Of a stretch of 64,000 nt of DNA, positions 1,087 to 56,928 are shown piece by piece. Both the position numbers and the translations under genes were made by a program. Position 1 is the first letter of the stretch, and each line of letters opens with the position of its first letter. This DNA comes from Vicingaceae bacterium (GTDB lineage: Bacteria > Bacteroidota > Bacteroidia > Flavobacteriales_E > Vicingaceae). The notes under the pieces are model-generated. The model was not told where the DNA came from. It made no database searches and saw nothing but the letters and a program-made list of their open reading frames with translations. The stretch lies in assembly GCA_965227255.1 (NCBI GenBank), contig CBDDFS010000003.1, forward strand, positions 27,503 to 91,502, read 5' to 3'.

Positions 1087-3036
1087 TTAATTAATATGAT
1101 ACATAAAACTGATTGTATAGTTCTGCAGTGGCATTGGCATGTTTACCACATACTGATATTCTTCATTGAAAAGGTTATTAATCCTGAAACTCAGGACAGA
1201 CCTTGATTTATCAAATCTGAAATGTCTTCCAAATTCGAGTCTGGCCGGAGCCGAATACGGCAGGAATTCCGAATTATCTGTATTGATATAAACTCTACCC
1301 GTGTATGACTGACTGTAATTCGCAAAGTATCTTCCTTTTGTTACCTGGAACATCAGAAAGAGTTTGTGATCCGGTATATAGACCTGCTGGTTTCCTGTGT
1401 ATTCCGGATTGTTGGCATCTTCCTGAATCCTTGAGTCGACATAGGTATACCCCACCTTAAACGTATTGTTCCAGGACTTCAGGTTTAGCATGAATTCATT
1501 CTCAATTTCAATACCGCTGTTTTGAACCGCTTTCACGTTTTGCGGTGTCCATATTCCGTCTGCTCCAGGTGCCCAGTAAATAAGATTCTGTACATCGGCA
1601 TAAAATGCTGAAATAATGTAGCGGTAATTCCATGGCCTTTCTTTTTTACGATGTATTAAAGTGTGATCAAAGCTGATCTCTCCGGATACAGATTCTTCAT
1701 TCTCCAGGTCCGGATTTCCAGCACTCAGCCAAAATCTCTCATTAAAAGTTGGGTACCTCACATTTATTCCGGCATTGAAATAAAGCCACATAGAAGAATT
1801 GCGTCTGTTTGGCATATAACCGGCTGAAAATGAGGGTAAAATTAAAGGGTCTGCTCCATCGAAACTTTCGATTCTGGCACCTGCCTTCAAAAACCAACTG
1901 GACCAATATTGAAATCTAAAGGATTGATAAAAGCTGATCAGATCTTGTTGTTTCAGCTCTTCATAATTATTGGTTTCTGCTTCCTGTAGGTCATATCGAA
2001 ATTGACTCTCTGAAAACCAGGCTTGTCCAAGTTTGTATTCACTATGAATCAAATTATTCCAAGCCCTGATCTTGTTGCGACTATCGATGAGTGAAACAGG
2101 CTTTATGTAAGTCATGAAGTCCTCAAGCACCATGCTGCTCGCATTCAGAATGAACTTATCCTTCTTGCCCTTGTAATTATATGAGACCTTGAACCTATTC
2201 CAGAGATCATATTGACTGGCATCTCCATGATTGGCACCCATAGACGCAGGAACCTCACGTTTTGAGTCTAGATGCCAATATGAAAACTTAAAAGAGCTTC
2301 TTTCACCGGGTTCGATCAATAAATAGGGCATCCACTGAAAGCGCCGGTAGGCGGCATTCTCTCTGTTATCGATCTCATTTCTGTTGGCTTCATTTACGAA
2401 TTCGAAGTCATTATCTGATTCTGTATAATAGACCGACGAAACGAAGGTCAGTTTCTTGTTTTTGGAAACAAATCCGATATCAAAAGGCAGTGTTTTTGTA
2501 TTAAAGCTTCCATATTGTAGTCCCGTTCTGACAAAGACCACCTGTTTCTCTTTGTTCTGATACTGGTCAAGGTCCGGGTACTGTTCTATATCCAGAATAC
2601 CGCCTATTCCACCTGAGGCGAAATTCAATGAATAGGCCCCTTTCATCATTCTTGCCTCTACTGATGTGCCAAAATTCATCAAGGACATATCGGTTAGGCC
2701 CAATTGTGAATTGTCTACAGACATGCCTTCCCAGAAAATTCTGGTGTGATTGGCTGAGTTCCCCCTGTAACTTAAAGTAGAAACCGATCCCGGACCATAA
2801 TCCTTGATATAAATGACGCTGTTCTGATTCAGAAAATCTCCCGCATCAAGTGTATTATAAGAAGCGTATTCCAGCGAGTCAAAATGGATGCTGTGGTCGT
2901 GAGTAATGACTTCAACATAACATTCCTCAACCTGAACTTCGTCCAAAGCAAGCGTATCTATCTGAGCGTGGAGGCTTGAATGGAAACCGACAGATAATGT
3001 AAAAAACCAAAAACCAAGAGGAAATTTCCTCATCAT
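1087..3036 (-). CDS. btuB: TonB-dependent outer-membrane receptor, vitamin B12 (BtuB-like)
   Basis: 649-aa ORF with a signal peptide, a plug region, a beta-barrel pattern rich in alternating aromatics, and a C-terminal aromatic residue region. Lies directly downstream of a cobalamin riboswitch. Confidence 0.85.
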   Translation of the reverse strand: MMRKFPLGFWFFTLSVGFHSSLHAQIDTLALDEVQVEECYVEVITHDHSIHFDSLEYASYNTLDAGDFLNQNSVIYIKDYGPGSVSTLSYRGNSANHTRIFWEGMSVDNSQLGLTDMSLMNFGTSVEARMMKGAYSLNFASGGIGGILDIEQYPDLDQYQNKEKQVVFVRTGLQYGSFNTKTLPFDIGFVSKNKKLTFVSSVYYTESDNDFEFVNEANRNEIDNRENAAYRRFQWMPYLLIEPGERSSFKFSYWHLDSKREVPASMGANHGDASQYDLWNRFKVSYNYKGKKDKFILNASSMVLEDFMTYIKPVSLIDSRNKIRAWNNLIHSEYKLGQAWFSESQFRYDLQEAETNNYEELKQQDLISFYQSFRFQYWSSWFLKAGARIESFDGADPLILPSFSAGYMPNRRNSSMWLYFNAGINVRYPTFNERFWLSAGNPDLENEESVSGEISFDHTLIHRKKERPWNYRYIISAFYADVQNLIYWAPGADGIWTPQNVKAVQNSGIEIENEFMLNLKSWNNTFKVGYTYVDSRIQEDANNPEYTGNQQVYIPDHKLFLMFQVTKGRYFANYSQSYTGRVYINTDNSEFLPYSAPARLEFGRHFRFDKSRSVLSFRINNLFNEEYQYVVNMPMPLQNYTISFMYHIN

Positions 3037-3069
3037 ATTTCGCTTTTAGCCCGAAAGCATTTTTAAAAA

Positions 3070-3235
3070 TACATGGCAGGTCTTCTGACTAACCCCACAA
3101 TCAACGGCCTTCCCTTTCACAGAAAAGTGGCAAAGTATCGTTGACCTCACGGAGATCACAGCAGCGGGTACTGTTCAGGATTCTAACCTGATTCCCTTTT
3201 CATTCGGAATGCGAAAACATTACGAATACCACTTC
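3070..3235 (-). promoter_or_regulatory. Cobalamin (adenosylcobalamin/B12) riboswitch
   Basis: The minus strand carries three conserved blocks. These are aagggaatcaggttagaatcctgaacagtacccgctgctgtga, gccacttttctgtgaaagggaaggc, and the B12 box agtcagaagacctgcc (plus-strand 3075-3090). The element ends about 35 nt before the receptor ATG. Confidence 0.9.
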
Positions 3236-3405
3236 GACAAAAGTATAATTATTATCCGAAAGACTGGAATGATCTAATCTTATTATGAATCTTTTTTCAA
3301 CATCAAGCGTAAAAAAGTCTCTGTTCAAAATTACAAGGCCTAAATTCAAAGTTTTATCTTTGGAGATAGTAAGCCGCAGTTTTGGCATAATAATTTGAAA
3401 CTGAT

Positions 3406-10350: not shown

Positions 10351-13300
10351 ATGAATTCACTTCGAGCACAGACTTTCTTTCCTCTTAAAGTTCCGTTCTC
10401 ATTTATTCTTTTCTCTATTCTTTTTGTCGTCGCCCTTACAACTCCAAAGATCTCGAAAGCCACCCATGCCATGGGTATGGACCTTACCTATGTCCAGGTA
10501 AGTCAGGACACTTTTATTGTTACCGTGGCATTTTACCGCGATTGTTCTGGAGCTGCAGCTCCTGCCAGCCAGACTCTCAGGGTCAGAAGCCAATCCTGTA
10601 ATGAGAATTTCACGGTTACCTTACCTCGAATAGGACAGGCGGTTGAAACAACACCGGTATGTGCTAGTCTCGTTACGGTTTGTAATAATGGAACATTCCC
10701 TGGGTCGGAAGAATATATCTATCAGGCAACGGTAGTTCTGCCGGATCAATGTTCAGATTGGATATTTAGTACTGACAGATGCTGTAGAAATAACGCCATT
10801 ACAACAATTAACAATCCGGGCAACCAGGAAATCTTCGTTGAAGCGAAGATCAACAACTTCAATTCGAACTCTTCTCCTGTATTCTCAAATCCTCCTGTAC
10901 CATTTGTCTGCGGCAACCAGACTTACTGTTTCAATAATGGAGCCATCGATCAGGAAGGAGACTCTCTTGTTTACAGTTTGATCACACCCAGAACCGGAAC
11001 TGGAGCCAATGATACCATCACATTCCAGGCAGGATATGATAGATTTAATCCTCTTACCTCAAATCCTCCAATCTTTCTGGATTCAGCTACCGGTGACCTT
11101 TGTATGTTCCCGACGGATACAACAGAAATCGCCGTTCTGGCACTTTTAGTGGAAGAATACCGAAATGGAGTTTTCATGGGAAGCATCATGAGAGATATCC
11201 AACTGAGGATCATTGGTTGTCCGAATGGAAATTCAAATCCTGTTCTGAGTGGAATTGACTCAACTACTTCTTTTGTAACGAAAGTCTGTGCTAACACAAA
11301 TTTGAGCTTTGATGTTTTTGTAGATGATCCTGATACCGGACAGGTTGTTACAATGACGTGGAATCAGGCTGTGCAGGGTGCAACATTTAATGTGACCACA
11401 GATGATCGTCCTGTAGGGACTTTTTCATGGACACCTACCATCAACGATGTTCGAGATCAGCCTTATTGCTTTACAGTAACTGTATCAGACGACAACTGTC
11501 CATTCAATGCTCAGCAAACGGCGTCCTATTGTGTATATGTGGTTGGTGTCGCTGCGATCGTTGACTCACTCATCGATCCTTCCTGTTTCGGTTATTGTGA
11601 TGGTCGGGCCATGGCACGCGTTGTAAATGGTATACCTCCTTTTATTTATTCATGGAATGACCCCAGTAATCAGACAAATGCAAGGGCCATAAATTTATGT
11701 GCGGGAACATATACGGTAACCGGTACAGACAGCACAGGTTGTACGACCAGTGTGCCCATTTCACTTTTTGATCCAAAAGAAATTGAGCTGGACTTGGACA
11801 GTGTACCTACCTTATGTAATGGAACAAATGATGGAATGGCCATTGTAAGTTCCGTGGGAATGGGATTCCCGCCTTATTCATATCTCTGGGAAGTGGCTGC
11901 AGGTTCTCAAACTACAGATACAGCCTTCAACTTGGCTATTGGCACATACACAGTTACAGTAACAGATTCAAATGGATGTTTCGTCTCCGACTCTATAACC
12001 GTAACAGAACCAAATCCACTCGCACTGACCGGAAATGTAATTTCCAATGTGAGCTGTAATGCATATAATGATGGTCAGGCCTGGGTTCAGGTTAGTGGTG
12101 GAACAGCACCTTATTCTTATCAATGGGATAGCCTTTCCAATTTCCAGACGACGGATACAGCAAGCAATCTTTTAGCCGGAAACCATACCGTAGTTGTCAC
12201 CGATGTAAATGGCTGTATGGACTCGGTTAGTATCACGATTAACGAGCCGAATTCAGTTATCACACTAAGCTTATCGACAGTAGATATCAATTGTACGGGA
12301 GATAGTACAGGTTCCGCAACGGTGGTAGCATCAGGTGGAACACCACCCTACGCTTATCAATGGAGTGCCAATGCGGGTTCACAAACTACGGCAACAGCAA
12401 CGGGTCTTACAGCCGGAACATATAGTATTATAGTTACTGACCTGAACGACTGCTCGGCTATACCTTTCGTCGTGTTGACCGAACCTGCGAATGCGTTTGT
12501 AATTACACCGGTCGATTCATTTGTTGCTTGTAATGGTTTCACCGATGGAGTGGCGGGAGTTGAAGTTGCGGGAGGAAGTCCACCGTATACTTTCCAATGG
12601 GATGCCAATGCAGGAAATCAAACTACTCAATATGCCTCCAACCTGGGAGCAGGAACTTATTCAGTATTTGTAGATGATTCGCTAGGATGCGGTGACACAG
12701 TTAATGTGCAGGTTCTGGAAGCAGACACACCATTGGTTATTACCGTGGGCAAGGTGGATGTGACCTGCAACAATGGATTTGATGGTCAGGCTTTTGTTTC
12801 TGTGACCGGAGGACTTCAACCTTACACTATTCAATGGGATTCTGCCTCTGGATTTCAAACAGGAGATACGGCAAACAACTTAATGGCTGGAAACTATGCT
12901 GTTAGTATTTCTGATGATTTCGGCTGTGTGGTTGATACATCAGTATTAGTGAACGAGCCTCCACCACTATTGACTTTGACGACCAGTTCCACCAATGTAG
13001 CCTGTTTTGGAGACAGCACAGGTACGGCAACCGTTGTCGTGTCCGGAGGAACTCCACCTTATACATATCAATGGAGTGCAAATGCGGGTGGACAAACAAC
13101 TGATACAGCCTTCGGATTGCCGGCAGGCACTTATTTTGTAACTGCCTTTGACAGCAACAATTGTACCACATCACCGGGAATACTTATAGAAGAGCCTAGC
13201 GATCCGGTTAGGTCAAATATTGTTACTATGGACGCCCTTTGCTTTAACGATAGCAGCGGTATGGCCATTGCTCAGGCTTTTGGTGGAAATCCACCTTATA

Positions 13301-15921
13301 CATATCAATGGGATAGTCTAGCCGGAAATCAAACAACGGATACAGCATTTAATCTTTCAGCCGGAAATTACAATGTGACCGTAACCGATTCACTTGGTTG
13401 TACCTTCGATACCTTAGTTATGGTAAGTCAACCAAACGCACCATTGCAATTAACACTTGCGGCGAATGAAGTGAATTGTTTTGGCGGAACGGATGGTAGA
13501 GCCATTGCCACGGCTGGTGGAGGAACGAGTCCATACAGCATTCAATGGGGTGCACTTTCAAACAATCAGACAGGCGATACAGCATTGAATCTTGTGAGTG
13601 GTTATCATCTGGCGACCTTGAGTGATACCAACATGTGTTCAGTTACCGACAGCATATTTGTAGGTGGACCGGCCGAGCCTGTTGTTGGAGTGATGTCGGC
13701 CGTTGATGCAACTTGTAACGAAAGTTCAGATGGTCTGGCCATTGCAGAGGCAAGTGGTGGTACTGCACCTTACCTTTATGTTTGGGACAGCAGCACCGGA
13801 AATCAGGCCAATGATACAGCATTCAATTTATCAGCAGGAACTTACACTGTGCTGATCACAGATTCTAATAATTGCGATACTACTTTTAGTGTTATTGTGG
13901 GTGAACCATCGAGACTTGAAGATTCAGTATTTGTCTCTTCCAATTTTGGAGGATCTGACATCAAATGTTTTGGTGATTCAACAGGTGAAGCCACTGCACT
14001 GGGTATTGGTGGAACAGCACCTTACACGTATCAATGGGATACAGCGGCTGCAAATCAGACCACGTCCATTGCCACAGGACTAGGTGAAGGTACTTACCAG
14101 GTTGTGATCACCGATACTAATGGATGTATGACCAGTGGTTCTGTAAGTCTCGCAAACCCTCCTAAAGTTGGAGCCACCATTGCTCAGATCAAAAATATCT
14201 CTTGTTATGGTGGTAGTGATGGAAGGATCGAAGTAAATGGATCCGGAGGGACATCACCATATACTTACCTCTGGAATACAGCTCACACAGGAAATGTATT
14301 AGATAGTGTGCCAATTGGAACATATACTGTAACAATTACAGATTCCAATAATTGTGATTTCGACACAACATTTACATTAATTCAGGCCGACAGCATTACC
14401 ATTGATTCATTGATTGAAATAGATGCAGCATGTTTCGGCACTCAAACCGGATCAGCCGGTATATTTATAAGTGGCGGTACCACACCTTACTCCTATTTAT
14501 GGGAAGTTTCTCCTGGCATATTCCAGGTCACACAAACGGCTATCAATCTTGATGCAGGAACTTATCCCGTTCAGGTAACAGACTTTAATGGCTGTTCAAT
14601 ACTTGATACCGCTGAGATCCTTGAACCAGGAGAGGTCTTTGTAAGCGTATCAGACAACGACACCATCTGTGCCAGTCAACCAACGGTGCTAACTGCTTTA
14701 GGGTCGGGTGGTGATTCTGCGTCATACAGATACGTCTGGCTCCCTCCTCAACCTGACAGTAATGCAACGCAAACAGTCATGCCAACGACAACGACAAACT
14801 ATGCGGTGAGAGCAATGGATGCGAGTGGCTGCTTTAGCAACCCCGCCCTTGTTACTGTATTTGTCAGAACAATGGAAAATGACACGATCAACGTTGACGT
14901 TGATGGAGATGTGTGTGCAGGCGATACAGCAATCTTGACAGGTTTCCACAATGGACCGTTCGGAAACTACACCTACACCTGGAACAATGGTTTAACCGGC
15001 TTTGGGCCTCATGAAGTGAGGCCTGATTCGGCTACCGTTTACGTCATGACGGCGAGTGATATATGCGGAAATACTATCTCTGACTCGGTATCTGTAAATG
15101 TTTTTCCAAATCCTGACCTTGGTCTTGACAGCATTATTGCAATCGGTTGTGATCCACTGGCAGTTCAATTTGACGATACCGTGAATACAATGACGAATCT
15201 GACGTATTTATGGCAATTTGGTGATGGAAATGCATCTACTCAGAAAAGTCCTACCTATACTTATCTCACAGCTGGAACATATGATGTAACATTGTCTATC
15301 ACATCTGCGAATTCATGTACGACTACCAATAAGACCAGTCCATCATTGGTTATAGTGCACCCTACTCCTAGCTCAGACTTTAAAGCGGATCCGTTGAGAG
15401 CTGATATGAGAAACCCGGTCATTGATTTCACGGATCAAAGCACAGGGGCCATTTCATATACATGGCAGTTTGGAGATGGAGACACTTCGAAGACTAGGAA
15501 TCCTTCTCATACCTATGGAGACACAGGAAGTTATGTGGTGACCTTGACTTCAATTTCCGATCAGGGATGTGAAAGTCAGAGTCAACGAGAGATTATCATT
15601 GATGCTTATTATTTTATGTCGGTGCCCAATGCCTTTACTCCTTCCACCAGCAATGGCAATGGTGACTGGAGAAATGATCCAGCAGGAAATAAGATCTTCT
15701 ACCCTTACACAACAAATCCTGAAGCAGTTGTGGAATACGAAATGTTGATCTTCAACCGATGGGGTGAATTGATCTTTGAGTCGAAGAATATATTCACCGG
15801 CTGGAATGGATTCTATCGCGACAGAGAGAGTCCTCAGGAAGTGTACGTATATAAGATCAAGGTGCGCTGGGAAAATGGACAGACATTCGAAAAAACAGGT
15901 GACGTTACCCTTTTCAGATGA
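10351..15921 (+). CDS. Giant cell-surface adhesin: 13 SprB-type repeats, 2 PKD domains and a gliding-motility-associated (type B T9SS) C-terminal domain
   Basis: 1856 aa. Repeats of the form C.G..DG.A.V..SGG..PY.Y.W........T....NL.AGTY.V.V.D.NGC. PKD signatures W.FGDG. The C-terminal NAFTP...N.WGELIF...GW.G block is typical of CHU_C/type B sorting domains. Confidence 0.9.
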   Translation: MNSLRAQTFFPLKVPFSFILFSILFVVALTTPKISKATHAMGMDLTYVQVSQDTFIVTVAFYRDCSGAAAPASQTLRVRSQSCNENFTVTLPRIGQAVETTPVCASLVTVCNNGTFPGSEEYIYQATVVLPDQCSDWIFSTDRCCRNNAITTINNPGNQEIFVEAKINNFNSNSSPVFSNPPVPFVCGNQTYCFNNGAIDQEGDSLVYSLITPRTGTGANDTITFQAGYDRFNPLTSNPPIFLDSATGDLCMFPTDTTEIAVLALLVEEYRNGVFMGSIMRDIQLRIIGCPNGNSNPVLSGIDSTTSFVTKVCANTNLSFDVFVDDPDTGQVVTMTWNQAVQGATFNVTTDDRPVGTFSWTPTINDVRDQPYCFTVTVSDDNCPFNAQQTASYCVYVVGVAAIVDSLIDPSCFGYCDGRAMARVVNGIPPFIYSWNDPSNQTNARAINLCAGTYTVTGTDSTGCTTSVPISLFDPKEIELDLDSVPTLCNGTNDGMAIVSSVGMGFPPYSYLWEVAAGSQTTDTAFNLAIGTYTVTVTDSNGCFVSDSITVTEPNPLALTGNVISNVSCNAYNDGQAWVQVSGGTAPYSYQWDSLSNFQTTDTASNLLAGNHTVVVTDVNGCMDSVSITINEPNSVITLSLSTVDINCTGDSTGSATVVASGGTPPYAYQWSANAGSQTTATATGLTAGTYSIIVTDLNDCSAIPFVVLTEPANAFVITPVDSFVACNGFTDGVAGVEVAGGSPPYTFQWDANAGNQTTQYASNLGAGTYSVFVDDSLGCGDTVNVQVLEADTPLVITVGKVDVTCNNGFDGQAFVSVTGGLQPYTIQWDSASGFQTGDTANNLMAGNYAVSISDDFGCVVDTSVLVNEPPPLLTLTTSSTNVACFGDSTGTATVVVSGGTPPYTYQWSANAGGQTTDTAFGLPAGTYFVTAFDSNNCTTSPGILIEEPSDPVRSNIVTMDALCFNDSSGMAIAQAFGGNPPYTYQWDSLAGNQTTDTAFNLSAGNYNVTVTDSLGCTFDTLVMVSQPNAPLQLTLAANEVNCFGGTDGRAIATAGGGTSPYSIQWGALSNNQTGDTALNLVSGYHLATLSDTNMCSVTDSIFVGGPAEPVVGVMSAVDATCNESSDGLAIAEASGGTAPYLYVWDSSTGNQANDTAFNLSAGTYTVLITDSNNCDTTFSVIVGEPSRLEDSVFVSSNFGGSDIKCFGDSTGEATALGIGGTAPYTYQWDTAAANQTTSIATGLGEGTYQVVITDTNGCMTSGSVSLANPPKVGATIAQIKNISCYGGSDGRIEVNGSGGTSPYTYLWNTAHTGNVLDSVPIGTYTVTITDSNNCDFDTTFTLIQADSITIDSLIEIDAACFGTQTGSAGIFISGGTTPYSYLWEVSPGIFQVTQTAINLDAGTYPVQVTDFNGCSILDTAEILEPGEVFVSVSDNDTICASQPTVLTALGSGGDSASYRYVWLPPQPDSNATQTVMPTTTTNYAVRAMDASGCFSNPALVTVFVRTMENDTINVDVDGDVCAGDTAILTGFHNGPFGNYTYTWNNGLTGFGPHEVRPDSATVYVMTASDICGNTISDSVSVNVFPNPDLGLDSIIAIGCDPLAVQFDDTVNTMTNLTYLWQFGDGNASTQKSPTYTYLTAGTYDVTLSITSANSCTTTNKTSPSLVIVHPTPSSDFKADPLRADMRNPVIDFTDQSTGAISYTWQFGDGDTSKTRNPSHTYGDTGSYVVTLTSISDQGCESQSQREIIIDAYYFMSVPNAFTPSTSNGNGDWRNDPAGNKIFYPYTTNPEAVVEYEMLIFNRWGELIFESKNIFTGWNGFYRDRESPQEVYVYKIKVRWENGQTFEKTGDVTLFR
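11560..14630 (+). repeat. Coding tandem array of 13 diverged SprB repeats, about 75-80 aa each
   Basis: Thirteen copies of the GG(T/S)(P/A)PY(T/S)YQW...AGTYTVTVTD.NGC signature were counted in the translation. Confidence 0.85.
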
Positions 15922-28400: not shown

Positions 28401-29898
28401 GGGAAATATGTTTCTGCAGAATGCCGAAGCCCTCGTTGAATACACGAATGTGCATTACAAATTCAAGAATAGCGTATTACTCGGTGACATGATTCCGGTT
28501 AAGATCAACAGCGACAGTATTTCAATACCCAATTTTAAGTTGGTTGATAAATTCGAAAATACAGGTCAGGGAAGTGTGTATTTCATTCACAACGGATTTA
28601 AAACTTTCAGAACTGAGCTTAGGATCAAATCAGACAAGTTGTTCGTCATGAACACGAAGAAAACCGACAACGACCTCTATTACGGTAAGGCTGTTATTTC
28701 TGGTGATGTCTACATTGAAAGTGAAAAAGGCAAGTCGTATCTGGATATGGACATTGTAGCCGAAGAAAAAACAGTTTTCAGCCTTCCCATGGTAGACAAG
28801 TCTGAGGTAACAGAAAATGAATTTGTTGTTTTCACAACACGGGAAGAAGATGAGGAAATCATCGTTGAAGAAAAAGAAAAGACCTTTGATGTCACACTTG
28901 ACATGAGACTCGAAATTTCACCAAAAGCCATGGTGCGTCTGGTTTTTGATGAATTTGAACAGGACGTGGTTGAAGCCAAAGGAAGTGGTGTTTTGAACAT
29001 GCATTACGATCCAAAGAACAGTTTATCTCTCCAAGGAGAGTACACGCTGAATTCCGGAAACTACGTCTTCAGACTACAATCCGTGGTAAACAAGAGATTC
29101 ATCATTGAACCGGGAAGCAAGATCAAATGGAATGGCGATCCATACCGAGGCGAAATGAACCTGGTTACAACCTATAAGACCAGAGCCAGACTGATAGACA
29201 TATTACCAGAGATCTATTCTGATGTGAACTACAAAAGAAATATACCGGTTCACCTGCAACTAAAGATGACGCAGACTATCGAAGAGCCCGTCATCGGTTT
29301 TGAGGTATATCTACCCGAATCGAATGAAAATGTGCGACAACAGCTAAGGGCAGAGTTATCAGACGAGACCTGTCTAAACCAACAGGTATTCGCCCTGCTG
29401 ATCCTTACCTCATTCTACCCTTGTGAGAATTTTGAAAATAGTCCAACTACAGCAGCAGGCCGTGAAACTGCCTTTGAAGCCATGTCGAACCAGTTGAGTG
29501 GTTGGTTATCAAACATCAATGAAAATGTGGATGTAGGTATTTCCTACACTCCGGGAGAAGAAGGAGAAACTCCCGATCAGCTTGAAGTTGCGGTGTCGAC
29601 TCAATTATTCAATGATCGGGTCGTTCTTGACGGGAACGTGAGTAGTGGAAACCAGACACAAAGCAATCCGGACCAGGTTGCCGGTGAGGGAAGCATTGAA
29701 TACCTGATACGTCCTGATGGAAAACTCAGCGTGAAGGTTTTTAATAAAGTAAATGAAAGAGCCTACATAGAGAATGATGATCTCTACATTCAGGGGGTGG
29801 GATTAAAATGGGTGCATGATTTTGGTGGAAACAAAGCTAAAGGCACAAGAAAGGAAGAAGAGGAGATTTTGGAGGAAGAGGTTATAGATGAAGAATGA
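25471..29898 (+). CDS. tamB: Translocation and assembly module protein TamB-like (DUF490 family)
   Basis: 1475 aa. GTG start, N-terminal anchor helix, long beta-rich body and a conserved C-terminal DUF490-like region. Divergent from tsaD, as is common in Bacteroidota. Confidence 0.8.
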   Translation: MSKSIKKAYRALIVGMDVILLIYALVVFALQINYFQSLTGKAIAKYLSKEWNAYVDIDRTEITFFNRLVLDELIIKDRLSDSLLYSRETDIGLELNLFKSRKFSIQSICLSDPKINLKREGEKEDFNFKFLIDYFSSSDTISPPLKLGIDHFEIINGHFNMNDETKKQKSGNSFDPSHLAIRELNLYVNDLQIDSNLYQVNYIKLSMKEQDFQLDNLTASISASDKGINIHDLHIQSPKSEVHAYIDLKTDNWQSYQNPLSDVNFKIRFLPSDMSTTDLAYFVPDLRGMRDIPEVKGEFSGSVDRLNGKDVQLSLADHSRVSLDFKLQGLPDFEETFIYMDVKNLYTSKRGVEKIKIPPFEQNNYIQLPENFGRLGRVNFSGKVAGFPRNLVVNGKIRTAIGQINTDLELKADSTFAYSGRIAAIDFNAGRFLDVEDRLGNVNLEAEIEGQGLSKDDVDAHLSGNILSMYFNQYNYRNVALSGDFVKETFTGSIGIRDKYVDLDFIGKIDLSEEDYVFNFNSKINHIYPKIVLAANQVDSTAHIQASLNIDMRYTNIDSLFGSFIVDDLVYKDFEDTISVSNFTFNSRRDGPIKHHSIRSDILDFNLDGRYDMLDGYKTVKKLLKTYVPNAIDEDIQVDKDFSFSLNMKDYSLLEKMISPGLSVDSGTYAQGWFKSKDDNFELNSQIIGFRKDNIKVDSTDLKLWADGDKLSLKSKISRYAIGKSTQDRYIDISSVVKDNRIENEMTSYGSGPFSSQIYLENYVFDHNTVGFRFLDTEFKADSLIWMMHDSNYVLFDSSSWSFQNFQVSRGNQSIGINGRISRNSWDKIELALDSFNLNQLNPFVEEAKVSLEGNITGYASLTDVYNERLFESNLSFMELRFNEKFLGSGHIISNWNEEDKRLDVDGEISHKGVDKIDFNGYYSTRKKDSPLNFELALIDLPLNVLEPFTKDILSEFGGSATGQFELTGTLSEPNLQGNMFLQNAEALVEYTNVHYKFKNSVLLGDMIPVKINSDSISIPNFKLVDKFENTGQGSVYFIHNGFKTFRTELRIKSDKLFVMNTKKTDNDLYYGKAVISGDVYIESEKGKSYLDMDIVAEEKTVFSLPMVDKSEVTENEFVVFTTREEDEEIIVEEKEKTFDVTLDMRLEISPKAMVRLVFDEFEQDVVEAKGSGVLNMHYDPKNSLSLQGEYTLNSGNYVFRLQSVVNKRFIIEPGSKIKWNGDPYRGEMNLVTTYKTRARLIDILPEIYSDVNYKRNIPVHLQLKMTQTIEEPVIGFEVYLPESNENVRQQLRAELSDETCLNQQVFALLILTSFYPCENFENSPTTAAGRETAFEAMSNQLSGWLSNINENVDVGISYTPGEEGETPDQLEVAVSTQLFNDRVVLDGNVSSGNQTQSNPDQVAGEGSIEYLIRPDGKLSVKVFNKVNERAYIENDDLYIQGVGLKWVHDFGGNKAKGTRKEEEEILEEEVIDEE

Positions 29899-29962
29899 AG
29901 GATGAAGGGTGAAAGATGATAAATTATAAATGTTAAATGGTAAATGGTAAATTATGGATGTT
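29886..29962. repeat. Heptanucleotide array of 11 phase-locked units (RRATGRW-like)
   Basis: Units are agatgaa gaatgaa ggatgaa gggtgaa agatgat aaattat aaatgtt aaatggt aaatggt aaattat ggatgtt. The tamB stop (29896-29898) lies in unit 2. Confidence 0.9.
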
Positions 29963-30667: not shown

Positions 30668-30716
30668 ATTGTTAATTGCGAGTTAATAATTTGCAATTAA
30701 TAATTCGTTATTCTCC
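30668..30716. repeat. Heptanucleotide array, 7 units (ATTNNNN)
   Basis: Units are attgtta attgcga gttaata atttgca attaata attcgtt attctcc, upstream of dnaE. Confidence 0.75.
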
Positions 30717-30779: not shown

Positions 30780-33700
30780 ATGTATCTGATTTTTGACACC
30801 GAAACGACCGGTTTACCTAAGAATTATAATGCGCCGTTAACGGACTTTGATAACTGGCCTCGAATGGTTCAGTTGGCCTGGCAGTTGCATGATGAGAATG
30901 GGGAATTGATCAGTGTTGAGAACTACATTGTAAAACCAGATGGATACGAAATTCCTTTCAATGCTTCCAAGATCCATGGTATCACTACAGAAAGAGCTGA
31001 GAAACAAGGCCTTGATCTTAAGGAGGTGCTCGATAAGTTTTCAGGAGACCTGGAGAAATGTCAATTCGTTGCCGGACATAACATATCCTTCGATCTTGCC
31101 ATTGTTGGATGTGAATATCTGCGTTGCGAACTTGAGAATAAACTCGAAGGCATCAAGGATCTTGACACCAAAGATGCAGGTACGGAATATTGCGCCATCC
31201 CCGGTGGTAAAGGAGGCGGATATAAATGGCCACGATTGGATGAACTGCATAAAAAGCTTTTCGATGAAGGCTTTGATGAAGCCCATAACGCCGCTGCCGA
31301 TGTTGAGGCGACAACACGCTCCTTCCTTGAAATGATCCGTCTGGGCCTGATCGGTCCCAAAGAAACAGGTCTTGACCCCTCCTACTTTGAGGAATTCAAA
31401 GAAAAGAACCCAAAGCCATTTAAGGCTATAGGATTGAATGTTCAGCCTTATGATCCGGGAGAACTGGAAGAAAGTCAGGAGTCCGAAGAAAAAGGTCAAA
31501 GGTCAGAAGAGACATCACCAAATAACCAAATAACCGAATCACCAGACAATACTCAGGAATCTGGAATCAGGAATCAGGAATCTGAAATCTCAGAAGCTTT
31601 GTCTTCTGAGTATGTCTCCCTACACAACCATACCCAATTCTCAATTCTTCAGGCTACTTGTGAGGTAAACAATCTGATCGATAAAGCCAAAGAATTTGGT
31701 ATGAAGGCCCTTGCTATCACCGACAAGGGAAACATGTTCGGTGCATTCAAATTCCAGCAGGCAGCGAGTAAGGCAGAGATCAAACCCATCATTGGTTGCG
31801 AATTTTACGTTTGTGACGACCATACAAATAAGAGCGTTAAAGATGACGGAAACATGCTGGTTCTGCTTGCAAAGAATCAGAATGGATACCGCAACCTCTG
31901 TAAAATGAGCGCCATTTCTTTCCTCGACGGTTTCTACTATGTTCCGAGGATTGATAAAGATGTTTTATTGGAGTACAAAGAGGATCTCATTGCCTTAAGT
32001 GGCGGACTGAGAGGTGAACCTTCAAGGCTTCTATTGAATCACGGTGAAAAAAGAGCTGAAGAGTCAATTTTGTGGTACAAGGAACACTTCGGGCAAGATT
32101 ACTATCTGGAACTTCTTCGCCATGGTGTTGAAGAAGAAGATGTTTCGAATGAATTTTTTATTCGAATGTCACAAAAACATGACGTGAAAGTCATAGCTCA
32201 GAACAACGTATTTTACGTAACTCCTGACGACGCAAAGGCTCATGATATTCTGCTGTGTGTCAAGGATAATGCCAAACAGAGCACGCCCATAGGTAAAGGA
32301 CGGGACAAGAGATATGGCTTTCCAAATAATGAATTCTCTTTTAAGTCACCTGCCGAGATGTCGGAGCTTTTCAAGGATATCCCGGAGAGCATCAGCAACA
32401 TCACAGAGATTGTTGACAAGGTTGAAGAATATCAATTGAAAAGAGATGTTCTGCTTCCTGCCTTTGAAATTCCGGATGAATTTGAAACGGAAGATGATTA
32501 TCTGAAGCATTTGACCTACGAAGGTGCAAAGCAACGATATGAGGAAATCACTCCTGAGATCAAGGAAAGACTTGATTTTGAGCTGGAAACGATCAAGAAT
32601 ACCGGTTATCCCGGTTACTTCCTGATCGTGCAGGATTTCACCTCTGAAGCGCGAAAAATGGGCGTAAGTGTGGGGCCCGGCCGGGGGTCGGCAGCCGGGT
32701 CGGCTGTGGCTTATTGCATTGGAATCACAAATGTTGACCCCATCAAGTATGACCTGCTTTTCGAGCGTTTTCTCAATCCCGACAGGATATCCCTTCCTGA
32801 TATTGATATTGACTTCGATGATGAAGGACGAGGAAAGGTCATTGACTTCGTTGTGGAGAAATACGGCAAGAATCAGGTGGCTCAGATCATCACCTATGGA
32901 TCCATGGCTGCCAAATCAGCGCTTCGGGATACGGCTAGAGTACTTGAGCTTCCGTTAAGCGAAGCCGATCAATTAGCCAAGATGATGCCAGATACCAAAC
33001 TGAAGAAAATGTTTGGTATGGAAGACAAGGCGTTGAAAGAAAAACTGGGTGCTGAGCAGTTCGAAAGAGCTCAGCAAATGAAAGAAATTGCGAAAGGTAA
33101 CGACCTGCAGGCCAATACGATAAATCAAGCTACCGTACTTGAAGGTTCACTTAGAAATACAGGCACGCATGCTTGTGGTGTGATCATCACTCCGACGGAT
33201 ATGACGGAACTGATTCCGGTGGCCTCGGCCAAAGATGCCGACCTGATGGTTACTCAATATGACAACAGTGTCATTGAATCGGCAGGGATGCTGAAAATGG
33301 ACTTCCTGGGACTTAAAACCCTATCCATTATCAATCATGCTATTCGTCTCATTAAAGAAAAACACGGTGTTGAAATTGATGTAGATGAGATTCCTTTGGA
33401 TGACACCAAGACCTACGAGCTATACCAACGGGGTGAAACGAACGGAACCTTCCAGTTTGAGTCGCCTGGTATGCAGAAGCATCTGAAGGCGCTTAAACCT
33501 GATAAATTCGCCGATCTAATTGCCATGAATGCCTTGTACAGGCCAGGACCAATGGAGTATATTCCAAACTTCATTGCAAGAAAACAAGGTCGTGAGGAGA
33601 TCACTTACGATATCGATGATATGGAGGAATACCTGGCAGAAACCTATGGTATTACTGTGTATCAGGAGCAGGTGATGCTATTATCCCAAAAGTTGGCAGG

Positions 33701-35105
33701 TTTTACCAAGGGTGAAGCTGACGTTCTGCGAAAGGCCATGGGTAAGAAGATCTTCGCCCTACTGGATCAACTCAAGCCTAAGTTTCTTGAAGGGTGTGAG
33801 AAGAACGGTCATGACAAAGTGGTTGCCGAGAAGGTCTGGAAAGACTGGGAAGCCTTTGCCGCCTATGCCTTCAATAAATCGCATTCTACTTGCTACAGCG
33901 TCATTGCATTCCATACTGCTTACCTTAAAGCTAACTATCCGGCTGAATACATGGCCTCTGTGTTGACCAACAACATGAATGATATTAGCAAAGTGGCTTT
34001 CTTTATGGAAGAATGTAAGCGACTGAATATTCCCGTATTGAGTCCGGATGTAAATGAAAGTCATATTCACTTTACAGTGAACAATGAGGGAGCAATTCGT
34101 TTCGGGTTAGGGGCTGTAAAAGGAGTTGGTGAAGCGGCTGTTGAAATCATGATTCAGGAAAGAAATCAAGGCGGAGCCTTTACTTCACTCTTTGATCTGG
34201 TGCAGAGAGTAGATCTTCGTTCGGTGAATAAAAGGACGCTGGAAAGTTTGGCCATGGCCGGTGCTTTTGATGGTTTCGATAATGCACACAGGGCACAGTA
34301 CTTTGCGACCGACGAACTGGGCAGAACGGGCATTGAATTGGCAGTCAAGTTTGCAAATGCTGTCAAACAGTCAGAGAATTCCAGCCAAATAAACATGTTT
34401 GGAGAGGAAAGCAGTTACGAAGTGACAGAACCTGAATTGCCCAAAACAGAAGAATGGGGTACCATGGAATTTCTTTCCAAAGAAAAAGAAGTTGTTGGTG
34501 TATATATTTCAGGGCACCCGCTAGATGACTATAGATTGGAGATAGAGAATTTCACCAATGCCAATCTGACCTTCCTGAATCAGGTCGACTATTTCAAAGG
34601 AAGGGAGATGAAGTTTGCAGCCACAGTCACAGGATCCAGGCATGGAATGACAAAAAGAGGAAAACCATTTGGAGTGCTTACACTCGAGGATTACTCAGAG
34701 AGTCAGGAGATTTTCCTATTTGGAGAAGACTATGTTAATTTCAAGAACTACATGGTCGTGGGCTGGCATTTGTATGTTCATGGCAAAGTGATGGAGCATA
34801 AATTCAAGGAAAATGAATGGGAATTCAAGATTGCCAAAATCGAGTTACTCAGTGACCTTAGAGACAAAATGGCACGAAGCATTACCTTAAATGTTCCAGA
34901 AACCACTGTAAATGAAGATTTTGTGCAGAAAATTGGTGAGATCAGTGACAAACATAAAGGCAAGGTTCAGCTTGTGTTGAAGCTCCTCGATAAAAAGGAG
35001 AAACAAGTGGTGGAACTGCGCTCCAGAAGCAAGAAAGTGAATATAACAGATGAATTCCTTGAGGAATTATCAGGACTTAAGGAAGTCAATTATACAATCA
35101 ATTAA
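30780..35105 (+). CDS. dnaE: DNA polymerase III alpha subunit (DnaE, PHP + pol + OB) with a fused N-terminal DnaQ-like DEDDh 3'-5' exonuclease domain
   Basis: 1441 aa. Exo motifs are FDTETTG (ExoI), GHNISFD (ExoII) and HNAAADV (ExoIII) in aa 1-190. A low-complexity linker spans aa about 225-275. The PHP start is VSLHNHTQFS, followed by canonical DnaE blocks (GPGRGSAAGS, PDIDIDF, LKMDFLGL, FNKSHS). Confidence 0.9.
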   Translation: MYLIFDTETTGLPKNYNAPLTDFDNWPRMVQLAWQLHDENGELISVENYIVKPDGYEIPFNASKIHGITTERAEKQGLDLKEVLDKFSGDLEKCQFVAGHNISFDLAIVGCEYLRCELENKLEGIKDLDTKDAGTEYCAIPGGKGGGYKWPRLDELHKKLFDEGFDEAHNAAADVEATTRSFLEMIRLGLIGPKETGLDPSYFEEFKEKNPKPFKAIGLNVQPYDPGELEESQESEEKGQRSEETSPNNQITESPDNTQESGIRNQESEISEALSSEYVSLHNHTQFSILQATCEVNNLIDKAKEFGMKALAITDKGNMFGAFKFQQAASKAEIKPIIGCEFYVCDDHTNKSVKDDGNMLVLLAKNQNGYRNLCKMSAISFLDGFYYVPRIDKDVLLEYKEDLIALSGGLRGEPSRLLLNHGEKRAEESILWYKEHFGQDYYLELLRHGVEEEDVSNEFFIRMSQKHDVKVIAQNNVFYVTPDDAKAHDILLCVKDNAKQSTPIGKGRDKRYGFPNNEFSFKSPAEMSELFKDIPESISNITEIVDKVEEYQLKRDVLLPAFEIPDEFETEDDYLKHLTYEGAKQRYEEITPEIKERLDFELETIKNTGYPGYFLIVQDFTSEARKMGVSVGPGRGSAAGSAVAYCIGITNVDPIKYDLLFERFLNPDRISLPDIDIDFDDEGRGKVIDFVVEKYGKNQVAQIITYGSMAAKSALRDTARVLELPLSEADQLAKMMPDTKLKKMFGMEDKALKEKLGAEQFERAQQMKEIAKGNDLQANTINQATVLEGSLRNTGTHACGVIITPTDMTELIPVASAKDADLMVTQYDNSVIESAGMLKMDFLGLKTLSIINHAIRLIKEKHGVEIDVDEIPLDDTKTYELYQRGETNGTFQFESPGMQKHLKALKPDKFADLIAMNALYRPGPMEYIPNFIARKQGREEITYDIDDMEEYLAETYGITVYQEQVMLLSQKLAGFTKGEADVLRKAMGKKIFALLDQLKPKFLEGCEKNGHDKVVAEKVWKDWEAFAAYAFNKSHSTCYSVIAFHTAYLKANYPAEYMASVLTNNMNDISKVAFFMEECKRLNIPVLSPDVNESHIHFTVNNEGAIRFGLGAVKGVGEAAVEIMIQERNQGGAFTSLFDLVQRVDLRSVNKRTLESLAMAGAFDGFDNAHRAQYFATDELGRTGIELAVKFANAVKQSENSSQINMFGEESSYEVTEPELPKTEEWGTMEFLSKEKEVVGVYISGHPLDDYRLEIENFTNANLTFLNQVDYFKGREMKFAATVTGSRHGMTKRGKPFGVLTLEDYSESQEIFLFGEDYVNFKNYMVVGWHLYVHGKVMEHKFKENEWEFKIAKIELLSDLRDKMARSITLNVPETTVNEDFVQKIGEISDKHKGKVQLVLKLLDKKEKQVVELRSRSKKVNITDEFLEELSGLKEVNYTIN
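31517..31589 (+). repeat. Octamer x4 then heptamer x5 array inside the dnaE exonuclease-PHP linker
   Basis: Octamers are accaaata accaaata accgaatc accagaca (31517-31548). Heptamers are aggaatc tggaatc aggaatc aggaatc tgaaatc (31555-31589). Together they encode NNQITESPDNTQESGIRNQESEIS. Confidence 0.8.
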
Positions 35106-35569: not shown

Positions 35570-35649
35570 GGATGATGGGATGATGGGATGATGGGATGAT
35601 GGGATGATGGGATGATGGGATGATGGGATGATGGGATGATGAGATGATA
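35570..35649. repeat. Perfect octanucleotide microsatellite (GGATGATG)x9 plus one degenerate unit
   Basis: Nine identical units counted at 35570-35641, then agatgata. Lies between the convergent trxA and DUF58 genes. Confidence 0.95.
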
Positions 35650-36633: not shown

Positions 36634-36668
36634 GTTAATTTTAAAATATGAATTGTAAATTATAAATA
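36634..36668. repeat. Heptanucleotide array, 5 units
   Basis: Units are gttaatt ttaaaat atgaatt gtaaatt ataaata. Confidence 0.65.
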
Positions 36669-36720
36669 TCGGGTAGTAAAGGTAAGGCCAAACCTCTAAT
36701 GAGACTAAATACTCAACCCC

Positions 36721-36755
36721 ATTTATAACTTATAATCTAAAATATATAATCCGAA
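36721..36755. repeat. Heptanucleotide array, 5 units
   Basis: Units are atttata acttata atctaaa atatata atccgaa, immediately 3' of the nuclease stop. Confidence 0.65.
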
Positions 36756-43712: not shown

Positions 43713-43819
43713 AGTGCAAGATTAAGTTTTTTCATTCTCCACATTGACTATAAATGATGAACGGTAAAATAGTCACGAAATTTCCCATTCCAAGATCTCA
43801 CATCAATATATCCTCTCAG

Positions 43820-43854
43820 ATCATAGATCATGAATCATAGTTCATAGATCATAG
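43820..43854. repeat. Heptanucleotide array, 5 units (ATCATAG)
   Basis: Units are atcatag atcatga atcatag ttcatag atcatag, in a divergent spacer. Confidence 0.85.
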
Positions 43855-43885
43855 ATCTTTTGGTATTTTGGCCAAAAAATAAAGC

Positions 43886-44764
43886 ATGCGAATTCTCACC
43901 TCTCTCCTACTAATTTGTGCCTTTGTATCCACTCAGTCACAAAACGAAAAAGAACTTAAAAAAATGACCAAAGGTTTCGATAAAACCGAAGGTGGTCTTT
44001 ACTACAAAATCACACCGGCCGCCGAACAGGGAAGAAAGGTTGAGTTACAGGATATAGTTACAGTAGATATTAAATACGGTACGAAGGACACGACATTATT
44101 TGACTCCAAAAGCATACAAACACCGGCAGAATTGATGGTTGGAGAACCAGTTTATAAATCCGATATCATGGAAGGGTTTATCATGCTGCATGAAGGTGAT
44201 GAAGCCGTTTTTATCACTTCGGCCGATTCTTTCTTCACCAAAGCAGGTGGTATTGGAATTCCTCCGGGAATCAACAAAACGGATTATCTGGTATTTGAAG
44301 TCAAAGTCAATAAGTCGAGATCCATCGATGAATTAAGGGCTGAAAAAGCGGCTTTGGCAGAGGAGCAAAAGGCAGCCGAAGCAAAGAAGATTGCAGAATA
44401 TATGACAAAATATTATCCAGGTGTAAGCGCCACCCCGTCTGGTCTATATTATGTTGAAACCAATGCAGGCAAAGGAAGACAGGCAGAAAATGGATTGACG
44501 GTCAAAGTACATTATACGGGCACACTTCTTACTGGAGAGACCTTTGATTCATCCTGGGAAAGAAATCAACCCATAGAATTTAAATTGGGTGCCGGCCGAG
44601 TTATTAGAGGCTGGGAAGAAGGTATCGCCCGCATGCGAGAAGGAACTACGGCCACCTTCATTATCCCATCAAACTTGGCTTATGGTGGCAATCCTCCTCC
44701 AGGAAGCATTATTCAAGCCTATTCTCCTCTCAGGTTTGACGTTGAGTTGATAGAAGTTAGATAG
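43886..44764 (+). CDS. FKBP-type peptidyl-prolyl cis-trans isomerase (two-domain, secreted)
   Basis: 292 aa. The C-terminal FKBP block is V.VHYTGTLL.G..FDSS.....P..F.LG.G.VI.GW.EG...M..G. Confidence 0.88.
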   Translation: MRILTSLLLICAFVSTQSQNEKELKKMTKGFDKTEGGLYYKITPAAEQGRKVELQDIVTVDIKYGTKDTTLFDSKSIQTPAELMVGEPVYKSDIMEGFIMLHEGDEAVFITSADSFFTKAGGIGIPPGINKTDYLVFEVKVNKSRSIDELRAEKAALAEEQKAAEAKKIAEYMTKYYPGVSATPSGLYYVETNAGKGRQAENGLTVKVHYTGTLLTGETFDSSWERNQPIEFKLGAGRVIRGWEEGIARMREGTTATFIIPSNLAYGGNPPPGSIIQAYSPLRFDVELIEVR

Positions 44765-44827
44765 TCGAAAGTCTACAGTCAACTGGAAAATTTGTTGAAG
44801 ACTGCAGACTAACGACTAACGACTAAA
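44764..44827. repeat. Heptamer-phased spacer (gtcgaaa gtctaca gtcaact ... gactgca gactaac gactaac gactaaa) that also forms a 10-bp imperfect inverted repeat
   Basis: Units were counted directly. gtctacagtc (44771-44780) is complementary to gactgcagac (44800-44809) with one mismatch. Lies between convergent genes. Confidence 0.7.
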
Positions 44828-47166: not shown

Positions 47167-47227
47167 TTCGTTTGGTTTAAGAATAGGGCAAAGATGAAAT
47201 GAAGATTGTGCACCCCGAAAAAACCGG

Positions 47228-47267
47228 GGTAAACAAGAAGTTGACAGGTAAACAAGAAAAGTTAACA
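47228..47267. repeat. Tandem direct repeat GGTAAACAAGAA(AA)GTT(G/A)ACA x2 in a divergent promoter region
   Basis: ggtaaacaagaagttgaca (47228-47246) is immediately followed by ggtaaacaagaaaagttaaca (47247-47267). Confidence 0.8.
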
Positions 47268-56830: not shown

Positions 56831-56857
56831 TCTTGGTTAGGTATTGTTAATAACTTA

Positions 56858-56917
56858 TGTCACATATTTGTTGCAAATGACGTCAAAAATGCAACATTTG
56901 TCCTCAAATATGTAACA
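56858..56917. promoter_or_regulatory. Operator-like cluster in the divergent switch region
   Basis: Four dyads are present. ATTTG-N3-CAAAT lies at 56866-56878, TGACGTCA at 56878-56885 and ATTTG-N4-CAAAT at 56896-56909. An outer inverted repeat pairs tgtcacatatttg with caaatatgtaaca (12/13). Confidence 0.6.
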
Positions 56918-56928
56918 CCTTTCGTCAT

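Follow-up and report, generated by a model that had tools for sequence, protein, structure and literature searches.

Why some bacterial lineages fill the spacers between their genes with 7-nt repeats is a question usually answered by invoking a hypothesis of polymerase slippage. The question arises in a 64-kb stretch of DNA from a Vicingaceae bacterium (contig CBDDFS010000003.1), hereafter the window, for which an original prediction, made from the letters alone, had claimed ten spacer arrays of phase-locked heptanucleotide units and one array of 8-nt units. All window statistics rest on these 64 kb of the source genome, and its gene map is a crude one drawn from open reading frames (ORFs) of at least 100 aa. 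The DnaE encoded in the window is closest to that of metagenome-assembled genomes (MAGs) of Flavobacteriales, namely Vicingaceae (67% and 63%) and a 'Flavobacteriales bacterium' (64%). At a probability of roughly 60%, we favor the reading that the arrays are slippage-made hepta- and octanucleotide microsatellites tolerated at gene boundaries, with some units and arrangements probably kept by selection.

Period 7 in the intergenic spacers of the window

The spacers of the window are periodic and contain tandem heptamer arrays far above chance. The original prediction proposed a lag comparison against shuffled and coding controls. We scored base identity at lags 1 to 21 in all spacers 30 nt or longer, 25 in number and 4.0 kb in sum with margins of 12 nt, using dinucleotide shuffles and coding DNA as controls. 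Identity in spacers was in excess of shuffles only at lags 7 (z 5.2), 14 (z 5.0) and 21 (z 4.0), and period 3 was the sole signal of coding DNA. Tandem Repeats Finder (TRF) was applied to the whole window, to the spacers alone and to the loci of relatives. It reported 7 period-7 arrays in spacers, versus a mean of 0.01 in 100 shuffles. These lie in approximately 3.5–4 kb of spacer, and the ORFs (about 60 kb) hold one heptamer and one 8-mer array. Set in rows of 7 nt and read unit by unit, array units keep phase. As predicted, convergent, divergent and tandem spacers all hold arrays.

Each array was also judged singly, by its lag identity relative to 200 shuffled spacer sets. Six of the ten predicted heptamer arrays stood up (starting at 29886, 43820, 44800, 49052, 50538 and 54161), as did the 8-nt array, with none or almost none of the shuffled sets holding an equal window. 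The other four (30668, 36634, 36721 and 44764) are at chance level, an equal window occurring in 10–70% of shuffled spacer sets, and are better described as a palindrome, a hairpin arm or weakly pairing DNA. These four failures, together with AT-rich spacers of low complexity, would favor an explanation of the arrays as chance patterns or assembly artifacts. The lag-7 excess with its harmonics and the TRF count speak against this, as do the length of the arrays (30–80 nt, below sequencing-read length) and the presence of the trait in independent ENA, JGI and NCBI assemblies, including one complete chromosome. Such an explanation is refuted for the 8-mer array and the six heptamer arrays that stood up singly, and overall we give it next to no credence.

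The arrays and associated structures of the window are as follows.

29886-29962, plus strand: RRATGAA x5 decaying into AAATKRT x6, 11 phase-locked units; TRF reports 29887-29919 and 29916-29952, in phase
30668-30716, no strand assigned: imperfect palindrome TTAATTGC...GCAATTAA with a 17-bp stem, upstream of dnaE; fold z -3.8
31517-31544, plus strand: ACCAAATA x3.5, 8-nt units, in the dnaE ORF; reported by TRF, lag-8 identity 0.85
31556-31590, plus strand: GGAATCT x5, in the dnaE ORF; reported by TRF, lag-7 identity 0.89
35570-35649, plus strand: GGATGATG x9.9 (about ten copies, nine of them perfect), 8-nt unit, in the convergent spacer after thioredoxin; TRF 35570-35648, score 151, 98% matches
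36637-36667, no strand assigned: AATTATA x4.4, weak AT-rich period-7 stretch; TRF score 34, at chance level (10–12% of shuffled sets)
43818-43857, no strand assigned: AGATCAT x5.7, partly self-complementary, in the divergent TonB-like/FKBP spacer; reported by TRF, lag-7 identity 0.79 with no shuffled equal, fold z -1.8
44762-44827, no strand assigned: hairpin with heptamer-array arms, GTCNNNN x3 versus GACTGCA/GACTAAC x4; -20.2 kcal/mol, z -4.3
49052-49100, plus strand: RRATGAA x7, filling a 42-nt convergent spacer; TRF 49054-49099, no shuffled equal
50538-50581, no strand assigned: TAAYTAT x6, in a divergent spacer that precedes a DEAD-box helicase gene; TRF 50545-50581, lag-7 identity 0.89
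54160-54195, minus strand: RRATGAA family (GAAAAAT/GAAGAAT x5), in a 418-nt spacer beside a small CGCTTCGTGAAGCG hairpin; TRF 54160-54191

The window arrays have nothing in common beyond the repeat unit, and no flanking sequence is shared, which agrees with the original view that copies of a single mobile element are not involved. Beside none of them did we see a transposase, a terminal inverted repeat or a target-site duplication. No Rfam family covers any array; matches to miRNA precursors were dismissed as sub-threshold hits of generic long hairpins. The units are 7–8 nt and contiguous, and thus lack the repeats of about 24–48 nt and the unique spacers of clustered regularly interspaced short palindromic repeats (CRISPR).

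RRATGAA family and unit properties

The unit was predicted to differ between arrays. Several units are indeed distinct (TAATTAT, AGATCAT, GGAATCT, GACTAAC), and no motif is common to all arrays, but three arrays belong to one family, RRATGAA: 29886 (+), 49052 (+) and 54161 (-), which are 86–89% alike over 25–42 nt. The 49052 array is 86% identical to that at 29886, and the 54161 array is 88–89% complementary to both. As RNA, RRATGAA arrays are unstructured (z +1.65 for the 29886 array, and +0.45). Their forward strand carries ATG and TGA in all three frames; the reverse strand carries almost none. The prediction that units place start and stop triplets in every frame holds for the forward strand of RRATGAA and of GGATGATG, but not for the RRATGAA reverse strand. 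A general purine/pyrimidine strand asymmetry of units was rejected, as non-RRATGAA units match random expectation. Readings of the C-rich, G-free antisense strand of RRATGAA as a Rho rut site, and of AAGGAUG as a CsrA- or Shine-Dalgarno-like site, were considered.

Two of the three RRATGAA arrays start at a stop codon in sense orientation. Array 29886 (lag-7 identity 0.74; equal window in 0 of 200 shuffled sets) contains in its second unit the TGA stop (29896-29898) of a gene for a TamB-like protein, a Pfam match to TamB. The next gene begins at 30015, 53 nt downstream, and the AAATKRT (3') half of the array resembles 36642-36680. Likewise, the TGA stop (49062-49064) of the TPR-LuxR gene falls in unit 2 of array 49052. 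Here no gene start lies downstream, the RNA is unstructured on both strands, and no terminator was found at the array. Array 54161, equaled in 1% of shuffled sets, faces a start codon about 120 nt downstream. Its long spacer (54041-54458) also contains two TTCGCTTCGYGAAGCG hairpin copies flanking the array and a strong terminator-like hairpin at 54332-54365 (-). Because array starts lie at or after stop codons and stops occur in all forward frames, gain or loss of units would change a few C-terminal residues at most.

Paired and other arrays

Two of the predicted arrays, 44764-44784 and 44800-44827, are complementary arms of one hairpin (44762-44827), of which TRF reports 44807-44826. None of 200 shuffles folds as well. 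The hairpin occupies the whole of a 58-nt convergent spacer and has stop codons at its feet, that of the FKBP gene at 44762-44764 and that of the S-methyltransferase gene at 44823-44825. No U-tract terminator was found at 44762-44827. At 30668-30716 the proposed 'ATTNNNN' heptamer array was discarded, as TRF reported nothing and lag 7 was at chance; the palindrome fits better. The stretch at 36634-36668 pairs loosely with 36721-36755 across their spacer (fold z -1.9). The AGATCAT x5 that precedes the TonB-like gene was considered as a candidate Fur-box-like site.

The 8-nt array was predicted correctly. It also contains the only canonical G-quadruplex motif found by regular expression in the 64 kb (35577-35635, +). 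With eight G3 tracts and 5-nt loops the motif fits the G3N1-7 rule, and G-quadruplex folding is predicted.

Arrays in the DnaE linker

The original prediction treated periodicity as a property of non-coding DNA. Periodicity is not so restricted, because two arrays that it missed, 31517-31544 and 31556-31590, sit in the dnaE ORF (30780-35105), in the linker that joins its exonuclease domain to its PHP domain. Together they make up 63 nt, or 21 codons, in frame. In an alignment with eight relatives, the window DnaE linker is the longest at exactly the array position. The GGAATCT array is free of stops in the frame used and is translated as ESGIRNQESEIS. Change by a unit would frameshift an essential gene. 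The fusion of an exonuclease to DnaE is itself ordinary, since the N-terminal exonuclease domain is common to all 80 Bacteroidota dnaE loci compared below.

Distribution among relatives and other Bacteroidota

For comparison, we assembled 80 Bacteroidota dnaE loci (1.71 Mb) retrieved by DnaE similarity, along with two metagenomic relatives found via the TPR-LuxR protein: L001, which is syntenic (67% aa identity), and L082 (66% aa identity). The TamB-like protein, used as query in a metagenome scan, gave no relative. Gene maps of all loci are ORF-based. By TRF, the window, L001 and L082 together contain 19 period-7 arrays in 76.8 kb (2.5 per 10 kb), versus 26 in 1.71 Mb (0.15 per 10 kb) for the 80 other loci. 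Within 10 kb on either side of dnaE the window has 6 arrays, the top control 5 (L016) and the average control 0.33. The window, L001 and L082 also have octamer arrays along with their heptamers, contrary to the claim of a constant period.

TRF found no period-7 arrays in the more distant loci L083 (41% identity) and L085 (29% identity), nor at the loci of the three nearest DnaE relatives. Two further relatives, L504 and L505, have nearly no spacer DNA and are uninformative. Conversely, L016, L065, L044 and L046 are rich loci among the 80, and array-rich Flavobacteriia include Leptobacterium flavescens (5 in 24 kb), Robertkochia sediminum, a Gillisia MAG and L044. Confinement of the arrays to the window, which according to the original prediction would count against it, is thus contradicted by L001, L082 and other Flavobacteriia. 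The heptamer trait is patchy and lineage-specific, neither general to Bacteroidota nor limited to the window.

A separate observation concerns the DNA just upstream of dnaE. In several Flavobacteriia a long spacer there is a mosaic of heptamer or octamer arrays and CTCGA-type hairpins (L016 1940-2340, 8140-8230 and 9810-9860; L065 9360-9820; L044 9620-9920; L037 9800-9835). L044 carries a duplication of an approximately 127-nt unit upstream of dnaE.

Turnover versus conservation

Four-fold degenerate sites have reached saturation when the window is compared with L001 or L082 (0.31–0.44 identity). At orthologous gene ends the array units differ or are missing: the S-methyltransferase gene is followed by GACTAAC in the window and TTTCATC in L001, and the TPR-LuxR gene by RRATGAA in the window, TAATTAY in L082 and no array at the stop in L001. 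Turnover, not conservation, therefore prevails within the window lineage. The TAAYTAT array at 50538 resembles a TAATAAC/TAACTGA array of L001 (8196-8243). A 40-nt motif outside the repeat arrays, 47227-47266, is 90% identical to L001 5899-5938 despite synonymous saturation. This tandem motif (GGTAAACAAGAAGTTGAC / GGTAAACAAGAAAAGTTAAC) lies in the divergent region preceding the TPR-LuxR gene and is a candidate operator or promoter element.

A different picture emerged from a second pair of genomes, L095 (Bacteroidota, GC 0.34) and L506 (chromosome OW818690.1), whose flanking proteins are 79–91% identical and whose four-fold sites agree at 0.43–0.51. Orthologous spacers of this pair keep the order of unit families and are 85–88% identical over aligned columns. 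Examples are [AAAAATG][GACTGCN] before a hydrolase start and [TTTTGGG][ATTATTC][GTCYKTW] after a kinase stop. The spacers differ by indels of whole units or modules and by substitutions common to every unit of an array, a pattern that points to slippage with concerted evolution, plus constraint on at least part of the unit. The GACTGCA-GACTAAC arm of the window hairpin has 12 nt in common with an L095 unit string.

Further features of this pair adjoin its arrays. A 376-nt stretch (L095 5575-5950; L506 13605-13985) is 97.6% identical where four-fold sites agree at about 45%. It has a GC content of 0.48 in a 0.34 genome and directly adjoins three heptamer arrays. It contains no ORF longer than 65 aa and matches nothing in Rfam; it may represent an RNA not yet described or an element that moved recently. 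A dispersed motif, AATTCGTRNATTCGTGGCA, lies between RRATGAA arrays upstream of several secreted-protein genes (L095 230-265 and 1920-1950; L506 9955-9990 and 19090-19115). ORF callers run these secreted-protein genes into the arrays, generating false N-termini such as MKNEKIELRLQTADCRLL.

RRATGAA arrays outside the window lineage

JGI metagenome contigs were scanned for exact (ATGAARR)x4. Stretches were found in at least 120 contigs, and the 80 loci analyzed span a GC content of 0.28–0.72. One of them, L141, belongs to Planctomycetota by its LldE protein (74–77% to Tepidisphaeraceae and Fontivita). After removal of 117 RRATGAA arrays, the loci picked in this way still contained 62 other period-7 arrays in 427 kb (1.45 per 10 kb), about 10 times the density of the control loci, and 7 was the commonest remaining period. 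Because contigs chosen for RRATGAA are rich in unrelated heptamers, heptamer richness looks like a property of whole genomes.

Many of the metagenome matches are inverted pairs of the form (AAGGATG)~4-loop-(CATCCTT)~4, with folding energies of -53 to -55 kcal/mol and z of -11 to -13. The purine arm was 5' in 16 of 16 inverted RRATGAA pairs; the reverse arrangement never occurred. These hairpins of about 30 bp lie in intercistronic spacers of contigs with a GC content of 0.38–0.66, at loci that include L089, L092, L093, L101, L107, L115, L118, L123, L141 and L166, and their loops and flanks are mutually unrelated. Single RRATGAA arrays in the metagenome loci (86 in all) had a gene end within 150 nt in 70 cases and a gene start in 34, a statistic biased because the arrays themselves terminate ORFs. 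Other heptamers keep company with RRATGAA: AGACNGC arrays adjoin RRATGAA arrays in L095, L121 and L108, and TAACTGA tandems co-occur with them in L104.

Exact (ATGAARR)x4 is also present in at least 120 viral contigs. Two composition-matched control heptamers were found in 57 and 76, so purine-rich heptamer arrays are frequent in general, and RRATGAA is at most modestly special among viral contigs.

In some genomes the arrays are parts of larger structures. L001 has five RRATGAA-family arrays, four of which form the 5' module of a dispersed composite element, in which the array is followed by TTCCCCTTTTACACTTTTACC and then by three copies of ACCTATGC and a GGCCC hairpin. Copies are up to 99% identical over 110 nt, and an inverted pair of RRATGAA arrays brackets 533 nt. 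L095 and L506 have arrays in alternation with a dispersed motif, AATTCGTGAATTCGTGGCA, and with a 62-nt hairpin module that recurs. These composites, the like mosaics with CTCGA-type hairpins in Leptobacterium, Robertkochia and other loci, the pairing of AGACNGC with RRATGAA and the occurrence in viral contigs would all suit an origin of the arrays as pieces of dispersed mosaic elements. Such elements would resemble repetitive extragenic palindromes (REP), bacterial interspersed mosaic elements (BIME) or miniature inverted-repeat transposable elements (MITE), and would be spread by transposition, recombination or horizontal transfer, with eroded or minimal copies in the window. The window itself fits poorly: its arrays are alike in the repeat unit alone, the hairpin, 8-mer and other extra modules of L001 are absent from it, and none of the usual marks of transposition accompany the arrays. 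Flanks and loops of the metagenomic hairpins are likewise unrelated to one another, and the viral occurrence is shared by control heptamers. We consider this origin improbable for the window arrays.

Origin of the arrays

Under the favored slippage reading, DNA synthesis in this lineage would be biased toward slipped-strand mispairing that gains or loses units of 7–8 nt. Arrays would then arise, expand, homogenize and decay wherever selection tolerates them, that is, in short spacers of any orientation and in a disordered protein linker if the total stays in frame. Arrays would often start at a stop codon simply because they make up nearly the whole spacer. Stages of such a life cycle are suggested by GGATGATG x9.9 at 98% purity and by the decaying 3' half of array 29886. 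The preference for 7 nt would reflect the replication or repair machinery, along the lines of the hypothesis of Mrazek (2007) as it is relayed in PMC4679880 and PMC4692102. There is likely also a second layer, in which some families (RRATGAA, GACTGCN) and hairpin arrangements at convergent gene ends would be retained by selection; it is suggested by the hairpin between the convergent stops at 44762-44827, the polar RRATGAA hairpins elsewhere and the conservation in L095 and L506. Our best guesses for its role, judged from sequence, are at the RNA level: 3'-end hairpins, fail-safe stops or re-initiation zones, or a binding platform with a 7-nt footprint.

Several observations weigh against slippage as the principal account. 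A pure mutational by-product explains neither the recurrence of RRATGAA across contig GC contents of 0.28–0.72 and into Planctomycetota nor the 16-to-0 polarity of its hairpins. The L095/L506 pair keeps unit order at 85–88% identity, versus 43–51% at four-fold sites. The whole-unit indels that suggest slippage come from that pair, not from the window organism, whose genome is represented by 64 kb. We know of no demonstrated polymerase property that favors 7 nt.

The recurrence of RRATGAA, the hairpin polarity and the conserved unit order lend support to the converse view, in which the arrays would act chiefly as functional cis-elements on transcripts at gene boundaries, with slippage only tuning copy number. 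Unstructured RRATGAA platforms, with AUG and UGA in all three frames, would act as fail-safe stops or as zones of ribosome release and re-initiation, each AUG in GGAUGAA opening a 5-codon mini-ORF that ends in an overlapping AUGA, in phyla with little Shine-Dalgarno pairing. Alternatively, they would be sites for a protein with a footprint of about 7 nt (Csp-like or S1-like), and paired arrays would be 3'-end or terminator hairpins. Besides the spread across phyla and the above-neutral spacer identity, this view draws on the hairpin polarity, by which either strand reads A-rich on the 5' side and U/C-rich on the 3' side, like a bidirectional terminator, and on the position of hairpin 44762-44827 exactly between two stops. 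The two RRATGAA arrays that begin at sense stop codons and the proximity of single arrays to gene ends point the same way, and a translational role has been argued for TAACTGA repeats (MacGregor 2015, PMC4679880). The gene-end statistic is, however, biased by ORF termination within arrays, and the hairpins have no following U-tract. Units vary widely without a shared motif, window arrays occur in both orientations and in every spacer type, one lies in the coding linker of dnaE, orthologous gene ends do not keep their arrays among the window, L001 and L082, and the nearest Vicingaceae-like relatives do without them. We regard this view as possible but doubtful.

A bolder proposal, which we rate as unlikely, is that RRATGAA and its companions (AGACNGC/GACTGCN, TAACTGA-like) would be cross-phylum gene-boundary elements, present both as single-stranded arrays and as array hairpins of strict polarity, and made or kept by a dedicated 7-nt-register factor that is patchily inherited or horizontally transferred. 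Such a factor could be a protein that binds nucleic acid, or an enzyme of repair or synthesis.

Other features of the window

A cobalamin riboswitch (RF00174, 98 bits, full length) lies at 3058-3248 (-), upstream of an ORF at 1087-3036 (-). The ORF at 10351-15921 (+) encodes 1856 aa and has domain repeats at 12061-14064 that are spaced 237 or 474 nt apart with 60–75% nt identity. The higher-GC block at approximately 55600-64000 is probably a prophage or integrative element. It encodes a D12 N6-adenine methyltransferase (58149-59042), a 996-aa protein with a CHC2 primase zinc finger (59649-62639) and many small ORFs without a Pfam match. The three spacers that the original prediction named in it (55872-56102, 56831-56928 and 58012-58148) are free of arrays, as had been noted, although with about one array expected in their 466 nt this absence is uninformative.

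Relation to known heptamer repeats

Heptamer repeats have been known since 1990 from the short tandemly repeated repetitive (STRR) sequences of heterocystous cyanobacteria, in which head-to-tail 7-nt units with the consensus CCCCAGT, TTGGTCA or CAACAGT occupy spacers, with several families per genome. STRR sequences are cited for Calothrix PCC 7601 in PMC4692102. The window arrays resemble STRR in being head-to-tail 7-nt spacer arrays of several families, which makes the analogy drawn by the original prediction a fair one. They differ in phylum, the host being Flavobacteriales-like and not a heterocystous cyanobacterium, and no STRR unit was found among the window array units.

Long simple sequence repeats (LSSR; Mrazek, Guo and Shah 2007), as described in PMC4679880 and PMC4692102, are a broader class of tandem 5–11-nt units, 7 nt being commonest, in several phyla. 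They are reported there as mostly intergenic and sporadic by lineage, with polymerase slippage proposed as their origin. The sole published proposal for 7 nt quoted in those two papers is that it approximates the segment of DNA held by the polymerase. Like LSSR, the window arrays are head-to-tail 7-nt units in numbers above composition, mostly non-coding and sporadic; they differ in their AT- or purine-rich units (RRATGAA, TAAYTAT, AGATCAT) and in a minority of 8-nt units.

The original prediction was aware of no equivalent in Bacteroidota. MacGregor (2015, PMC4679880) reported TAACTGA direct repeats in Beggiatoaceae, cyanobacteria and five Bacteroidetes (Flexibacter, Gramella, Aequorivita, Elizabethkingia and Paludibacter). 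These include Flavobacteriia. The TAACTGA spacers of Gramella, Aequorivita and Elizabethkingia also contain direct repeats of other heptamers and bigger heptamer assemblages, close relatives lack them, and contigs often break in TAACTGA repeats (PMC4679880). Tandem TAACTGA is absent from the window even with up to 2 mismatches allowed, a look-alike TAACTAC/TAATTAT array being all that was found. Among all loci fetched, exact tandem TAACTGA occurs only in L104, and a variant in L001. The window arrays do not seem to cluster directly before start codons as TAACTGA repeats do. G-quadruplex heptamers were described in Xanthomonas (GGGAATC) and Nostoc (GGGGAYT) by Rehm et al. (2015, PMC4692102). 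The GGATGATG array likewise fits the G-quadruplex rule, but it is an octamer and the sole such array of the window, the others being without G-tracts. As in REP, BIME and MITE, arrays are cassette modules with hairpins in L001, L095/L506 and L016, whereas window arrays have no shared flanks. Membership in CRISPR, STRR, TAACTGA or MITE was rejected for the window arrays.

Since heptamer assemblages in Bacteroidetes were described in 2015, the window arrays are not a new kind. Heptamer spacer repeats are already known, Bacteroidetes included, and the window adds a Flavobacteriales-like lineage outside the STRR and TAACTGA sequence families. A full-text search for the GGATGAA array string returned no relevant paper. 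Nor did the literature searched contain a description of cross-phylum RRATGAA, of hairpin polarity or of above-neutral conservation, all three of which come from the related loci.

On a practical level, these arrays break assemblies and mislead ORF callers into false starts and extensions, and they could mark strains. If a dedicated 7-nt-register factor exists, it would explain the sporadic heptamer-rich genomes of Bacteroidota, Planctomycetota, Cyanobacteria and Beggiatoaceae. The question of why some lineages fill their spacers with 7-nt repeats is now more testable, given RRATGAA at 28–72% GC in at least two phyla, the 16-to-0 polarity of its hairpins, the L095/L506 pair, and cultured species that have the trait, Leptobacterium flavescens and Robertkochia sediminum.

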